Part shown: piece after piece, positions 1,464 through 23,285 of the stretch | Layout: each line of letters starts with the position of its first letter | How positions within the stretch are numbered: position 1 is the first letter of the stretch | Assembly: GCA_965223545.1 (NCBI GenBank) | Contig: OZ245006.1 | Span: 5,760,001 to 5,824,000, forward strand | Direction of reading: 5' to 3' | DNA from: Planctomycetota bacterium | GTDB taxonomy: Bacteria; Planctomycetota; UBA1135; UBA2386 | Length of the DNA stretch: 64,000 nucleotides | The notes under the pieces: model-generated | Told to the model about the DNA's origin: nothing | Seen by the model: only the letters and a program-made list of their open reading frames with translations | Databases searched by the model: none | Position numbers and translations under genes: made by a program

Positions 1464-1583
1464 CTGAGCCTCGGGGTCCGAGAATGTTCGAGCGGCAACA
1501 ACCTTTCGGAAGGCCCGTCGTCGCCGGGACTTCGATACCGCAACTCCCGGAGGCTCGAAGACAACACGGGCGTCTGCGCTCAG
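1464..1583 (+). repeat. Repeat module A copy 2 (120 bp)
   Basis: Only 2 differences from 23085-23204. Confidence 0.95.
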
Positions 1584-1604
1584 CGTGGCCGCCCGGCACC
1601 GCTG

Positions 1605-1673
1605 GACGATCAGGAAGCGGACGTCAGCGGCGCACGAGGCGGCCGACAGACCTCTGAAGCCGGGGTTCGTCAC
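1605..1673 (-). pseudogene. 5' fragment of a nucleotidyltransferase-like gene, truncated at the repeat
   Basis: MTNPGFRGLSAASCAADVRFLIV resembles the N-terminus (MNxDFxDLLxxFxxxxVRFLIVGG) of small MNT-like nucleotidyltransferases; it overlaps the end of the 70-aa partner gene and runs into the repeat arm. Confidence 0.55.
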
Positions 1674-1836
1674 CTTCTAGCCCTTGGATCGCGCGAGCGT
1701 CGCGCACCATGTCCCACAGTAGCGCGACCTTCTGTTCGCCGGAAAAGTTCGCCCAGAAGGCACGGTTCGCCGCCGCCTCGTCGTCGAAGCTGCGGAAGAG
1801 GCGTCCCGTCACACGTGGCCTTGGCTCGTCGGTCAC
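1624..1836 (-). CDS. Small hypothetical protein of the type usually paired with a downstream nucleotidyltransferase (TA-like partner)
   Basis: 70 aa with FWxxxSxEQKxxxxW and C-terminal DEPRLQRSVxRxxRR; GTG start preceded by AGGA. Confidence 0.65.
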   Translation of the reverse strand: MTDEPRPRVTGRLFRSFDDEAAANRAFWANFSGEQKVALLWDMVRDARAIQGLEGDEPRLQRSVGRLVRR

Positions 1837-1959
1837 GTCCTGATTCTACTGCATCACGGCGAGCGGGATGGTGTTCGATGCGCTCAGGCCAGCGCGGCCG
1901 GGCTGCAGCGCTTGGACTACACGCCTGGTGGCGGGCGCGGGCCAGTCGCCGGAGCTGAT

Positions 1960-2049
1960 CGTAGACCAGCGGCCAGCTTTGCGAGCCGGCTCAGCGCCTC
2001 GCCGACGATTTCGAACTGCCGTTCGACCGCGGCCTCGAGCAAACGGGTT
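1960..2049 (-). pseudogene. Internal fragment of HepT-like (DUF86) ribonuclease
   Basis: LLEAAVERQFEIVGEALSRLAK matches the DUF86 helix motif AVERxFEIIGEA; there is no start and no RNxxxH motif, and it abuts repeat A3. Confidence 0.65.
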
Positions 2050-2169
2050 CTGAGCGCCCGGGGCCGAGAATCTTCGCGCGGCGAAAACACTTGCGAAGGC
2101 CGGTTGTCGTCAGGACTTCCATACCACAACTCCCGGACGCTGGAAATCAACACGGGCGTCTGCGTTCAG
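2050..2169 (+). repeat. Repeat module A copy 3 (120 bp, diverged)
   Basis: Same length and ends as the other A copies, with many substitutions. Confidence 0.9.
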
Positions 2170-2187
2170 CGCGGCCGGGGCCGCAAC
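2170..2187 (-). repeat. Left part of inverted repeat module B copy 3, interrupted by IS110
   Basis: CGCGGCCGGGGCCGCAAC is the exact reverse complement of 1446-1463. Confidence 0.95.
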
Positions 2188-2201
2188 GGTATGTGTGGTT
2201 C

Positions 2202-2515
2202 CATGATCTGCGAAGCTAGAGTTCTCCACACCCGTCGCGCCGTAGCGGTGTGGAAGACTCGCGCGATGGTGCAGCCGCAGGAGTCGTGTCGGGAGTCTGG
2301 TCATCGGCCGCAAGAGAGCTTAGGGTCCCCCGGCGTGCGACGGAGAGGTTTCGCGATCTGCCGCAATGGTGGCGCTTCGAGCGGCCCCTCATTTGGTTCT
2401 GCGACTCTCCTCCCGCGTGGGGGACCCGATTTAGGAGATTGGCGGCGTGAGAAATCACGGCCCCGAAACACGAACCGTTTTGGCGACTCGCCTCCTCAGG
2501 CGGACTGCGCGGGTA
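2202..2515 (+). ncRNA. Predicted IS110 bridge RNA (5' hairpin 2219-2260; target-binding loop ~2342-2410; donor-binding loop ~2412-2513); ends approximate
   Basis: Guides GCCGCAA (2360-2366) and TTTGGTT (2392-2398) match the target; TTAGGAGAT (2431-2439) and ACCGT (2474-2478) match the IS ends; both loops share the scaffold GAT-N9-TGGYGGCG-hairpin-CGGCCCC...GCGACTC. Confidence 0.85.
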
Positions 2516-2561
2516 GGGAGAGTCCTCTCGTCGACACTCACTCGTTGAACATGGAGGGGAC

Positions 2562-4064
2562 ATGAATCGATTCGTTGGATTGGATCTCGGCTTGAGGAGC
2601 AAGCACCGAGCCGTCGTTCTGGATGGTGCGAAGTCTCGGGGCAGACCGTTTTCAGTCGAGAACAGCCGTGAGGGTATTGACCTTCTGCTGCGCCGTGCAC
2701 AGGAAGGTGCCGAGGGTCCGGTGAGCTTCGTGATGGAACCAACGGGGTTGGCGTGGCTGCCCATCGCGGCGCACGTGAACGCCGCAGGGTTCCAGATCTA
2801 CGTGAGCAAACCACAGAAGCTGAGCGACCTGCGGAAGTTCTATAGCAAGCACACCAAAACCGACGTAGTAGACGCCGAGGCCGCTGCGCGTCTGCCGCAG
2901 ATGGATCCAAAGGGCGTCCACCAGCTGCGTGTTCCAACTGCCGACGAGACGACGATCCGTCGACTCGTGAAGCGGCGTGAGCGGTTGGCGCGCGAGCTCA
3001 GCGACCACAAGCGTCGTGTGCACGCGATACTGGTACTGGCGAATCCCAGCCTCATGAAGGCCTTGGGGGCAGAGAAGTTCAGTGCCGCTAAGATGGGGTT
3101 TCTGCGGCGCTACGTCGATCCGGTGAAAGCGGTCGGCCTTGGGAAGAGTCGCTTGGAGCGCTTCTTGACGAAGCGATCCAAGGGAACGCATGACCCGTGC
3201 TTGGTCGACCGCGTGCTCGAGTCCTGCCGACAGGCCGCCGAGTACTACGCTGAGCTGCGAGCTGCGGGGCAGATGCCGTTCGACTACGAGGCCATCCAAG
3301 AGGATGTGGTGTACGAGCTGGATGAGATCGAGCGCAAGAACACGGACGTTCGCAAGCTCGACGCAAAGATCAAGAAGCTCTACCTGGGCGTCGATCCTGA
3401 CCGAACACTCGAGCAACTGCGCGGCGTCGGTCCCACGATCGCTGCGGCCATCGAAGCCTTGGTAGGCGACATCGCGCGGTTCTCGAACGGCAAGAAGTTC
3501 GTGAGCTACTGCGGACTGTGTCCACGCCGGAAGCAGACGGGCATGAGCGACCCCTCGATGCCAATCACCAAAACCGGCCAACGAGTACTCAAGAAGTACC
3601 TCTACCTAGCAGCTGACGTCGCTCGCCAGTGGGATCCGGATTTCGCGGCGTACTACGCTCGCCGCTACGCCGCAGGTGATCACCACAACCTCATCCTCAT
3701 CGCATTGGCTGGCAAGATGGCGCGCCGCGTCTACGCCCTCCTGAAGCGTCGCGACAGCCAGCGCGCCGATGACAAGCCGGCGTCGACGCAAGTCCGCTAC
3801 GTCCTGCGAGACGCCGACGGCAACGAGCTCACGAAGGTTGCCGCGCGCGCGCTCATCGCAGCCAAGTTCACGCGCAGCATCGTCGCGCCACAGCGGCATG
3901 AGCGCGACCAACGGCGACAGGGACGAGTGGGGACTCCGACGACGAGGGACTTGAGTGGCCGCCCAATGGACGCCACAGGCCTGGCCGTGGAATCCCCACG
4001 TCAACCTCACCCGATCGGTGATCTCATGCAAGAACACTTCCCTGGTCTTGTGGAAGAGTCCTGA
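2562..4064 (+). CDS. IS110-family transposase/bridge recombinase (500 aa)
   Basis: RuvC-like DEDD residues D8 (GLDLG), E59 (MEPTG), D101/D104 (KTDVVD); Tnp domain LRGVGP...SYCGLCPRRKQTG...ITKTG...YLAA; RBS GGAGG upstream. Confidence 0.97.
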   Translation: MNRFVGLDLGLRSKHRAVVLDGAKSRGRPFSVENSREGIDLLLRRAQEGAEGPVSFVMEPTGLAWLPIAAHVNAAGFQIYVSKPQKLSDLRKFYSKHTKTDVVDAEAAARLPQMDPKGVHQLRVPTADETTIRRLVKRRERLARELSDHKRRVHAILVLANPSLMKALGAEKFSAAKMGFLRRYVDPVKAVGLGKSRLERFLTKRSKGTHDPCLVDRVLESCRQAAEYYAELRAAGQMPFDYEAIQEDVVYELDEIERKNTDVRKLDAKIKKLYLGVDPDRTLEQLRGVGPTIAAAIEALVGDIARFSNGKKFVSYCGLCPRRKQTGMSDPSMPITKTGQRVLKKYLYLAADVARQWDPDFAAYYARRYAAGDHHNLILIALAGKMARRVYALLKRRDSQRADDKPASTQVRYVLRDADGNELTKVAARALIAAKFTRSIVAPQRHERDQRRQGRVGTPTTRDLSGRPMDATGLAVESPRQPHPIGDLMQEHFPGLVEES

Positions 4065-4106
4065 ACAAGCCGTGCACACGCGATGTCGAGCCCCAGCGAA
4101 AACCCC

Positions 4107-4112
4107 TTGACA
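4107..4112 (+). promoter_or_regulatory. -35 box (TTGACA) in the IS right end; pairs with the -10-like TATGTG (2190-2195) only in the excised circle
   Basis: 15 nt to the right end plus 2 nt of the left end give a 17-bp spacer. Confidence 0.75.
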
Positions 4113-4127
4113 TGACTTAGGAGATAT

Positions 4128-4189
4128 CAAACACGGAGCATTCCGCGACCCGAGGTCGGTCGCGGGTCCCGCGGTCGCCGGCGGCCGCG
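4128..4189 (-). repeat. Right part of inverted repeat module B copy 3
   Basis: CAAACACGGAGCATTCCGCGACCCGAG...GGCGGCCGCG matches the reverse complement of B (1-nt deletion); followed by CTGAGC. Confidence 0.95.
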
Positions 4190-4277
4190 CTGAGCGTAGT
4201 CCCCAAAGCTCTTACCCACCGTGGACTCGAAGTCAGCATCTCTACGACGAGCGAGCCGTGCGCGCTACTTTCGCGGT

Positions 4278-4472
4278 ATGGCGGACTGGACGTCGTTCTA
4301 CTACCAGCTGGCGGTCGGTGGATTGGTGTTTGCCGTCGGCATGTTCGTCGGTGTGCGCACCGGCCAGCTCGGCGGTAGTGGGCGTGGCCTGCGCCGCGCT
4401 GGCTGGCTGCTGGCGGGGTTGGTCTTCTTCGCGGCGCTGCAGGCGGCGCTGACCGCGTGGGGTGGGCCGTGA
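4278..4472 (+). CDS. Small two-TM membrane protein, likely SSS transporter accessory subunit
   Basis: 64 aa with two hydrophobic segments; stop overlaps the GTG of the symporter. Confidence 0.7.
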   Translation: MADWTSFYYQLAVGGLVFAVGMFVGVRTGQLGGSGRGLRRAGWLLAGLVFFAALQAALTAWGGP

Positions 4473-6340
4473 CGGCGCAGGTGGCGCTGCACGGCCTCGA
4501 TGTGGCCGTCGTGCTGGTCTACTTCGCCGGCATCACGGCGTTCGGCGCGTTCGTCGGCCGCTCGGTCGGCACGACGCGTGACTTCTTTCTCGCCGGGCAG
4601 CGGTTTCCGGCGTGGTTGGTGGCGTTCTCCTGCGTGGCGACGCTCGTTGGCTCCTACTCCTTCGTCAAGTACAGCTCGCGGGGCTTCGAGCACGGCCTGT
4701 CGTCGTCGCAGACCTACCTGAACGACTGGTACTGGATGCCGCTGTGGATGCTCGGCTGGTTGCCGATGATCTACTTCGGCGGCGTGCTGTCGGTGCCGGA
4801 GTACTTCGGTCGACGCTTCGATCGCCGGGCGCGGGCGGCGGCCACCGTGATGCTGCTGCTGTATCTGGTCGGCTACATCGGCATCAACCTGTACACCATC
4901 GGCGTCGCGCTCGAGACCCTGCTGCGCGGCTCACTCGGCCTCGACACCCTGACGCTGGCCGCGATCACAGCGGCGCTGTGCATGGCTTATGAGTTCACCG
5001 GTGGCCAGCTGTCGGTGATCTTCACCGATCTGGTTCAGGGTGTGCTGCTTCTCGTCGTCGGCCTCTTGCTGTTCGCCGTCGGCATCGCCCATCTCGGTGG
5101 GCTCGATCAGTTCTGGCAGCTGCTGCCCGCGGGCCACCGCCAACCCCTGCCGGCGTTCAACGACGACCCCGGCTGGAACTTCGTCGGCATCTTTTGCCAA
5201 GACGGCGTCGCCGGTGGGGTGGCGTTCTACTTCATGAGCCAGGCGATGCTGATGCGCTTCCTGTCGGCGCGCTCGGTCGGCACCGCGCGGCGCGCCGCGG
5301 CGCTGGTGGTGATCGTGCTGATGCCGCTGGCGGCGATCGCCGTGTCGGGAGCCGGCTGGCTCGGTGCCGCCATGGTCGGCAAGGGCACGCTGCCCGCCGA
5401 TACCGCGCCGAGCGACGTGTTCGTCGTGGTCGCGCACCTGCTTTGCGGTCCTGGGCTGTTCGGCCTGGTGGTGGCGGCCATGCTGGCGGCGCTGATGTCG
5501 ACGGCCGACACCCTGATCAACGCGTCGTCGGCCGTGCTGATCAACGACGTCTACCGGCCCATGCGCCCGGGCCGAGACGACCGGCACTACCTGCGGGCGG
5601 CGCGGTTGGCGTCGCTCTTGGTCGCCGCGATCGGCTTGGCACTGGTGCCCGTCTACCAGGGGTTCGCCTCGATCTACCAGGCGCACGGCGCCTTCACGGC
5701 GGCGATCACTCCGCCGCTCGTGGCGGCGATCCTGCTGGCGTGCACTTGGCCGCGGATGACGACTGCCGGAGCACTCGCCACCCTGATCGGTGGTGCGGCC
5801 GCGATGTTGGCGTCGATCCCGTGGCCCGGTCTGGTGGCGCCGTTTGCCCACGGCGTGCCGCCGGACGGTGGCTACACCTACGTGCGCGCCTGTTACGGTC
5901 TGGCAGCAGCGATGCTGCTGGGCATCGGCGTCAGCCTCTGCACGGCGCCCCGCCCGCGGGCCGAGATCGACGCGCTGACCGTGTGGGGTTGCCGCAAGCG
6001 CGCCTCGACCAGCGCGACGGCGGCCGGGCGCTCCCGCCGTTGGCGCGGACACGCCGCGGCCGCGCCGTTGGTAGCGGACGCGCGAACGCAGGTCGCGGCC
6101 GACGGTGCCCTGCCCGAAGTCGGGCTGTCGCGCGCGGCGCGCGCGCGCCTGGCGGTGGACACCGGCGACGTCGTGTTCATCGACGAGGCGCGGTGGTGGC
6201 GCGGTGGGTTGAGCTCGGTGCGGGCGCGGGTCGGCGCCGAGATCGTCGACGGCGACGGCACGCTCCGACTGGCGCCGGCGGCGATGCGCGCGGCCGGCTT
6301 CGCCGAGCGCGCGGCGGTCGTCGTCGAGCGCGTCGATTGA
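4469..6340 (+). CDS. Sodium:solute symporter (SSS) family protein with soluble C-terminal domain
   Basis: DFFLAG, SVPEYFGRRFD, TDLVQG and AALMST motifs; about 13 TM segments. Confidence 0.92.
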   Translation: MTAQVALHGLDVAVVLVYFAGITAFGAFVGRSVGTTRDFFLAGQRFPAWLVAFSCVATLVGSYSFVKYSSRGFEHGLSSSQTYLNDWYWMPLWMLGWLPMIYFGGVLSVPEYFGRRFDRRARAAATVMLLLYLVGYIGINLYTIGVALETLLRGSLGLDTLTLAAITAALCMAYEFTGGQLSVIFTDLVQGVLLLVVGLLLFAVGIAHLGGLDQFWQLLPAGHRQPLPAFNDDPGWNFVGIFCQDGVAGGVAFYFMSQAMLMRFLSARSVGTARRAAALVVIVLMPLAAIAVSGAGWLGAAMVGKGTLPADTAPSDVFVVVAHLLCGPGLFGLVVAAMLAALMSTADTLINASSAVLINDVYRPMRPGRDDRHYLRAARLASLLVAAIGLALVPVYQGFASIYQAHGAFTAAITPPLVAAILLACTWPRMTTAGALATLIGGAAAMLASIPWPGLVAPFAHGVPPDGGYTYVRACYGLAAAMLLGIGVSLCTAPRPRAEIDALTVWGCRKRASTSATAAGRSRRWRGHAAAAPLVADARTQVAADGALPEVGLSRAARARLAVDTGDVVFIDEARWWRGGLSSVRARVGAEIVDGDGTLRLAPAAMRAAGFAERAAVVVERVD

Positions 6341-23204: not shown

Positions 23205-23285
23205 CGCGGCCGCCGGCGACCGCGGGACCTGCGACCGACGCTCGGGTCGCGGAATGCTCCGTGTTTGGTTGCGGCCTCGGCCGCG
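23205..23285 (+). repeat. Repeat module B copy 2 (81 bp); empty IS110 target at 23267/23268
   Basis: Near-identical to 1383-1463; followed by CTGAG. Confidence 0.95.

Follow-up and report, generated by a model that had tools for sequence, protein, structure and literature searches.

The stretch from 2330 to 2515 very probably encodes the body of a bridge RNA belonging to an active insertion sequence of the IS110 group, located at 2188-4127 of the window (the whole 64,000-nucleotide stretch of DNA that was analyzed). This reading comes from sequence comparison: the boundaries of the element, its copies, the empty sites, the complementarities, the conservation and covariation of the RNA, and the co-variation of guides with flanks were all computed directly. 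Bridge RNAs were described in 2024 and, in the parts of the original reports drawn on here, are predicted in most IS110 elements (Durrant 2024, Hiraizumi 2024). The parts that define a bridge-RNA system of the IS110 group are present in the element; its kind is known and its lineage is new. The coordinates of its features are collected in Table 1.

Table 1. Features of the insertion sequence, its putative bridge RNA and its target site (window positions)
Feature	Position	Strand	Remarks
Insertion sequence	2188..4127	+	11 copies, 0 differences; no target duplication; ends and flanks without a common base
Left target half (left target plus target core AC), GCCGCAAC	2180..2187	+	identical in 11/11 copies; contiguous with CAAA in 95 empty sites
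Right target half, CAAA	4128..4131	+	identical in 11/11 copies; bases further out variable
Left-end terminus	2188..2195	+	right donor GGT 2188-2190; -10-like TATGTG 2190-2195; GGTAT starts the left end of relatives
Predicted 5' hairpin, CCACAC...GUGUGG	2226..2253	+	7 predicted pairs, mostly by sequence conservation; 1 compensatory pair
Probable bridge RNA body, both loops	2330..2515	+	sole match of model R1 in the window, 170 bits
Putative target-binding loop	2342..2410	+	stems GGAGAG/CUCUCC and UCGC/GCGA; apical hairpin 2369-2388; all modelled pairs form
Left target guide, GCCGCAA(U) = GCCGCAAU	2360..2367	+	same sense as left target; last U lies opposite target C, as a U·G wobble with the bottom strand
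Right target guide UUUG plus core guide GU	2392..2397	+	complement of AC+CAAA
Putative donor-binding loop	2412..2513	+	closing helix CCCGCG(U)/(G)CGCGGG; apical hairpin 2441-2464
Left donor guide, UUAGGAGAU	2431..2439	+	identical to the right end of the element, 4117-4125
Right donor guide ACC plus core guide GU plus one U	2474..2479	+	complement of AACGGT (2185-2190), the left junction
Recombinase, 500 aa	2562..4064	+	DEDD domain 5-162; Tnp domain 281-366; D8/E59/D101/D104; T326; extension from 398
-35 box, TTGACA	4107..4112	+	15 nt before the right end; TTGAC box and its spacing kept in relatives
Left donor TTAGGAGAT plus donor core AT	4117..4127	+	final bases of the element; 11 copies

An initial search of the genome found that a 1.9-kb unit is repeated and that its flanks are part of a far more numerous short repeat. 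An end-anchored comparison of the genome copies then set the element at 1,940 bp. Its 11 copies lie at 11 different flanks and are 100% identical (0 differences in 1,940 bp), and each keeps the open 500-codon frame and the identical RNA region. The earlier note on this DNA had called the element intact, and the identical copies with their open reading frame bear this out. We conclude that the element recently copied itself eleven times and is active.

All 11 copies are inserted at the same point, GCCGCAAC|CAAA, and the only flank bases common to them are these 12, GCCGCAAC plus CAAA. The unoccupied site, GCCGCAACCAAA, occurs uninterrupted 95 times in the genome, within a REP-like repeat; two unoccupied sites fall in the window, at 1442-1453 and 23264-23275 (minus strand). 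The target that had been predicted from the letters of the window, GGCCGCAACCAAAC, is correct, given the 95 empty sites and the 11 copies that all sit between the two halves. The joint 2187->4128 is also present in contigs from DNA runs, where contigs of the element have about ten times the depth of the flanks. A core common to both junctions was considered as C, AC, AAC or AT, and none of these is compatible with the empty site.

The REP-like repeat around the element (flanks 2100-2187 and 4128-4195) has the consensus ..CTCAGCGCGGCC-N3-GCCGCAACCAAAC.CGGA... Within it, GGCCGC of the left target forms a short inverted repeat with GCGGCC, of which it is the 3' arm, an arrangement that recalls the target stem-loop of ISPpu10. 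The genome holds other IS110 elements as well. An IS110 transposase model has 38 matches in it (e.g., L102-L113, and C1:6849683-6850669 in L002): 11 in the element studied here, 23 in a second element, 3 in a third, and 1 other. At one place a copy of our element is followed, about 200 bp downstream, by a copy of the third type.

Two loops can be read in the RNA region, and the strings from which the earlier note read them lie where it placed them. In the first loop these are GGAGAG (2342-2347) opposite CTCTCC (2405-2410), TCGC (2352-2355) opposite GCGA (2401-2404), GCCGCAAT (2360-2367) and TTTGGTT (2392-2398). In the second they are CCCGCG (2412-2417) opposite CGCGGG (2508-2513), TTAGGAGAT (2431-2439 and again at 4117-4125) and ACCGTT (2474-2479). 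The scaffold GAT-N9-TGGYGGCG ... CGGCCCC ... GCGACTC is present in both loops, and the inner hairpins are CGCU-UCG-AGCG in loop 1 and CGUGA-GAAA-UCACG in loop 2.

The minimum-free-energy fold of 2330-2530 alone is no better than that of shuffled sequences (z = -0.56). We therefore give folding energy no weight, and the support for the structure comes from comparison with relatives. Nearly all relatives of the protein come from metagenomes (103 clusters at E<=1e-20, with 73% identity for the best), and 400 other genomes of the phylum yielded none in a protein search at E<=1e-30. Relative loci with flanking DNA numbered 88, 80 from metagenomes and 8 from genomes. The upstream regions of the closest relatives align across the entire two-loop region, and model R1, a covariance model made from 11 sequences with 30 hand-chosen pairs, matches 63 of the 88 loci. 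All 63 matches are on the strand of the gene and just upstream of it, with a few tens of bases left between their end and the start codon. The model has no match in the other IS110 elements of this genome that were tested. In 1500-5000, the sole Rfam 15 match at E<=1 resembles a snoRNA and is put down to chance.

In the R1 alignment (59 distinct rows), modelled stem positions are paired in 89% of cells, compared to 71% in shuffles and 38-53% when the partners are slid; the alignment was fitted to the model and so favors the structure, a bias that the slid controls carry in part only. The stems covary, with compensatory changes on both sides in 28 of the 30 modelled pairs. The apical helices are paired in 99.5% (target loop) and 97.2% (donor loop) of cases among the 59 distinct sequences. 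The helix that closes the donor loop is paired in 70.6%, with a covariation score of 0.33. The GC-rich segment that contributes to it, 2412-2419, can pair either with 2507-2513, closing the donor loop, or with 2334-2339, making a longer target-loop stem. Both alternative helices covary on columns that are unpaired in the model (70.6%, score 0.33, and 81.6%, score 0.52, respectively), figures to be read with the CG-repeat-like nature of the segments around 2412-2419 in mind, as partners slid by 2 still pair in 48-62% of cells. An outer stem made by UAGGG (2321-2325), or its loop-loop pairing with the 3' hairpin loop, holds only in some relatives and was set aside. The hairpin at 2226-2253 is probably the 5' stem-loop of the transcript. 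This conserved hairpin follows the -10-like box, precedes the loops, and carries a near-invariant motif, CUGUGGAA, on its 3' side.

A structured RNA in this position could also be a cis-acting leader of the recombinase mRNA that affects translation or stability. The protein itself would then recognize the REP-like repeat, and the matches in the loops would be incidental. The RNA is indeed directly upstream of the ribosome-binding site (GGAGGGG, 2553-2559), with a small hairpin (2518-2529) alongside, and the target lies inside a palindromic repeat; in the part of the ISPpu10 preprint drawn on here, the structure of the target matters for that element (bioRxiv 10.64898/2026.03.19.712850). A leader would not account for the behavior of the guide columns, which change with the flanks in relatives far above cross-pair controls, nor for the core guides of the two loops, which co-vary through five dinucleotide types, nor for the fact that the bases conserved at the 11 insertion sites are exactly the 12 nucleotides that the guides cover. 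We consider it extremely unlikely.

Each loop carries matches to DNA at the ends of the element or its target. In loop 1, UUUGGU, part of the wider guide string UUUGGUU (2392-2398), is the complement of ACCAAA. In loop 2, ACC is the complement of GGT at 2188-2190, and TTAGGAGAT occurs at exactly two places in the 64-kb window, 2431 and 4117, where 0.02 occurrences are expected (100 shuffles). The left and right target guides and left and right donor guides (LTG, RTG, LDG and RDG) that the earlier note assigned hold: matches in the loops correspond to the target and to both ends of the element itself, and in relatives the target guides change with the flanks.

The family-wide comparison separates the guides from the scaffold. 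Column entropy is 1.80 bits in the left target guide and 1.84 bits in the right, which is nearly random across the family, and 0.74-0.88 bits in the scaffold, 0.60 in the left donor guide and 0.58 in the ACC of the right donor guide. The ends of the relatives were called by motif rules, without empty sites (GGTAT opens the left end; a TTGNNN box that precedes TTAGGNGA lies 15 nt ahead of the right end). With ends so called, an exact run of at least 6 between the left target guide and the left flank of the same locus is found in 16 of 31 unique loci, compared to 19 of 920 cross-pairs (2%). For the reverse complement of the right target guide and the right flank of the same locus, such a run occurs in 15 of 32 loci, compared to 11 of 972 cross-pairs (1%). 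Examples of guide and flank in relatives are AAGACGAG / AAGACGAGC, GACGAAAU / GACGAAAT, UCCCCAUAU / TCCCCATAT, UUCGAUCGC / TTCGATCGC, GGGUAGUA / TACTACCC and CCCACGUG / CACGTGGG.

We take this co-variation of guides and flanks to be natural retargeting on one scaffold, and the case for the loops being guides rests mainly on it. Covariation of guides across homologs had been proposed as a check, and target guides do track the flanks of their own loci. The suggestion that the system is probably reprogrammable stands to the extent of this natural variation, in which one scaffold appears to carry different guides for different flanks. In one closely related pair of loci, L061 and L032, a change in the left donor guide is matched by one in the right end (both AGGAGA in L061, both AGGAAA in L032). 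Covariation on the donor side is otherwise hard to see because the donor ends are conserved.

The core guides of the right target guide and the right donor guide are both GU in this element. Among 50 distinct sequences, the two core guides are equal in 44, through five dinucleotide types (GU, AU, CU, AG and AC). When core guides are compared with the 2 nt to the left of the element, perfect pairing is found at 19 of the 34 loci, pairing with one G·U wobble at 6 more, and no such pairing at the other 9; perfect core pairing in cross-pairs is 18%. In a distant branch of the RNA family (L090, L092, L095, L096 and L101), the core guides are AG and specify CT, which is the core of IS621. The left flanks at these five loci end in CT, and their left ends begin with GGTATAAT, a perfect -10 box.

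GU core guides specify AC, and the target core is AC, but the right end of our element finishes in AT. The junctions read ..GCA-AC|GGT on the left and ..GAT-AT|CAAA on the right in 11 of 11 copies. Of the 28 unique loci whose right end was called, 10 have an arrangement of AT versus (A/G)C, and in 13 the right end matches the core guide of the right target guide exactly. The same dinucleotide is on both sides in 7 of the 23 unique loci in which both ends were called. A GU core guide can pair with AT by a G·T wobble, and the donor core is read only by the right donor guide: the left donor guide stops before it, reading UUAGGAGAU and then U-GG, compared to TTAGGAGAT and then AT-GG in the donor.

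The layout of the junctions can be compared with what is described for IS621. In the parts of the two IS621 reports used here, top strands are cut after core position 9 and the right donor guide then pairs with the incoming target core, and a "handshake" dinucleotide beside the right donor guide pairs with target positions 6-7 (Durrant 2024, Hiraizumi 2024). By analogy, the layout seen in all 11 copies, with the target core on the left and the donor core on the right, is the one expected if top strands are cut 3' of the core and exchanged. The last U of ACCGUU fits a handshake guide of the IS621 type rather than a part of the right donor guide. The string would then be read as ACC for GGT, GU for the target AC, and U for the preceding A, a reading that explains why ACCGUU is the perfect complement of the left junction AACGGT (2185-2190). 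Two preprints of 2025-2026, in the parts consulted, argue that other IS110 elements transfer the top strand or a single strand.

A left target guide of fixed register by alignment column was tried and fails, as our element and loci L024-L026 differ by one position. The left target guide lies one position further 3' here than in L024-L026, despite the common target half GCCGCAAC. The uncertainty of about 1 nt that the earlier note attached to the guide register remains in place.

The recombinase is recognizable from its sequence and predicted fold. The ORF at 2562-4064 matches DEDD_Tnp_IS110 (PF01548, 1.9e-24) and Transposase_20 (PF02371, 4e-21) in Pfam, and residues 4-397 match NCBIfam NF033542, "IS110 family RNA-guided transposase", with 208.7 bits (cut-off 140). 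An annotation pipeline would already give it that name. A profile of 39 family members matches ISCro4 (1e-27) and IS621 (1.3e-25). The AlphaFold model (pLDDT 86.5) has IS621 and ISCro4 synaptic complexes as its ten best PDB matches, with target-normalized TM scores of 0.70-0.73 and about 20% identity. Given an identity of about 20% to both, "divergent subfamily" was a fair description. The DEDD catalytic tetrad aligns with the published tetrad residues of IS621 and is conserved among the 39 members: D8, D101 and D104 are invariant or nearly so, and the column of E59 has E in 35 and D in 4. Residues 398-455 (3753-3926) are predicted to form a beta-hairpin and helices (block pLDDT about 89-93) beyond the end of the IS621 fold. 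The extension is a conserved feature of the family; against Pfam, the C-terminal 104 aa reached only chance matches below the threshold. Residues 456-482 are predicted to be disordered.

The residue that aligns with the catalytic serine of IS621, S241, is a threonine, T326 (codon 3537-3539), in the motif GLCPRRKQTG in 11 of 11 copies. The assignment was counted from the alignment: D13 of 8wt6 chain A corresponds to the published D11, an offset of 2, which makes the Ser of YESG S241. A threonine keeps the hydroxyl side chain. The column has S in 22 of the 39 family members and T in 17, interleaved across identity levels. In literature on IS110, bridge RNA and threonine, we found no mention of a threonine nucleophile.

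The threonine is one of three observations that might indicate a real bridge RNA in an element that is no longer mobile, one that is decaying and whose copies spread in some other way, such as duplication. The others are that the donor core AT differs from the AC that both core guides specify, and that no circle junction was seen in DNA contigs. We think this very unlikely. Eleven copies with 0 differences in 1,940 bp lie at 11 different flanks, each exactly at the site that the guides specify. The 17 family members with threonine are scattered among those with serine, and the AT/AC arrangement recurs in the 10 of 28 unique loci described above. An active element is the preferred reading, and the 11 identical copies imply activity of the T326-bearing recombinase.

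We infer the steps of transposition, including transcription from the junction, binding of RNA by protein and the chemistry of strand exchange, from IS621. Circle formation would join TTGACA near the right end to TATGTG at the left end, with TTAGGAGATAT directly joined to GGTATG at the predicted junction, and so would generate a promoter of the sigma-70 type. The joined ends would read TTGACA-N17-TATGTG. Relatives keep the box and the spacing, and have better -10 boxes, up to TATAAT. A promoter scan of the integrated copy found 0 complete promoters. The contigs from DNA runs contain empty-site joints and showed no right-end-to-left-end circle joint. Of the sequencing runs listed for this sequence, none is recorded as RNA, and one RNA run (a polyA library with another organism label) gave 0 reads. 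The junction promoter would transcribe the left end, with a start near 2200, so that the 5' hairpin and a variable linker would precede the target-binding loop and then the donor-binding loop. The recombinase would bind this RNA, and top strands would be cut just 3' of the core and exchanged, placing the element between GCCGCAAC and CAAA of the REP-like repeat.

IS621 of E. coli (PDB 8WT6-8WT9) is similar to this system in several respects, as far as the excerpts of Durrant 2024 and Hiraizumi 2024 used here describe it. Both have the DEDD plus Tnp recombinase fold and a left-end RNA with a target loop and a donor loop. In each loop the 5' guide is of top-strand sense and the 3' guide antisense, and the core guides are in both 3' guides. 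Both have a REP-type repeat as target, the promoter predicted here would be split between the right and left ends as in IS621, and a cut just 3' of the core is compatible with the junctions seen here. The two also differ. The proteins share about 20% identity, with 500 aa here compared to 328 residues in the IS621 chain. The left end here is longer, at 374 nt, and a linker that varies separates its 5' hairpin from the loops. AT is the donor core and AC the target core here, whereas IS621 shares CT, paired by all four guides, and the left donor guide here ends before the core. Lastly, threonine stands at the position of S241, and a C-terminal extension of about 60 aa is predicted to be folded.

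Other members of the family provide further comparisons. ISCro4 (PDB 9T56) is the best match in sequence and fold among solved structures, with 20-21% identity, a comparison made at the level of the protein. ISPpu10 of Pseudomonas putida, an IS110 element that targets REP sequences, also has one conserved multi-copy repeat as its target, a natural guide-target interface with a G·U wobble, and a promoter, P_junc, across the junction of its right and left ends, like the one predicted here; it differs in having a CT core on both sides and its wobble outside the core, whereas the wobble here is within the core (bioRxiv 10.64898/2026.03.19.712850, in the part drawn on here). Elements of the IS1111 group (seekRNA, or right-end bridge RNA) have a recombinase of the same family and choose targets with an RNA guide. 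However, their RNA is in the right end, downstream of the gene. The RNA of our element is upstream of the gene and its right end is 63 nt, which is the arrangement of the IS110 group.

We speculate, as a possibility that falls somewhat short of probable, that donor and target cores in this clade need not match. The right end might keep AT over many rounds while targets have AC or GC, both being read by wobble of the GU core guides and by the terminal U of the left target guide. Junctions that are always asymmetric (the 11 copies and 9 further unique loci) would then mark inheritance of the top strand only, which would fit the top-strand, copy-out models of the two 2025-2026 preprints, in the parts consulted. 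Serine and threonine might likewise be interchangeable as the nucleophile, and 2412-2419 might close the stem of either loop.

Bridge recombinases are under development as programmable tools for DNA insertion, work for which active new orthologues and their guide maps provide useful material to start from. The one-position difference between donor core and target core raises the questions whether the cores have to match and from which strand the surviving sequence comes, and the threonine at the position of the IS621 catalytic serine asks what the nucleophile can be. The natural record of this element is unusually complete, with 11 identical copies, 95 empty sites, and a 12-nt target that is fully explained by the guides, and about 60 related loci share its scaffold but aim at other sequences.
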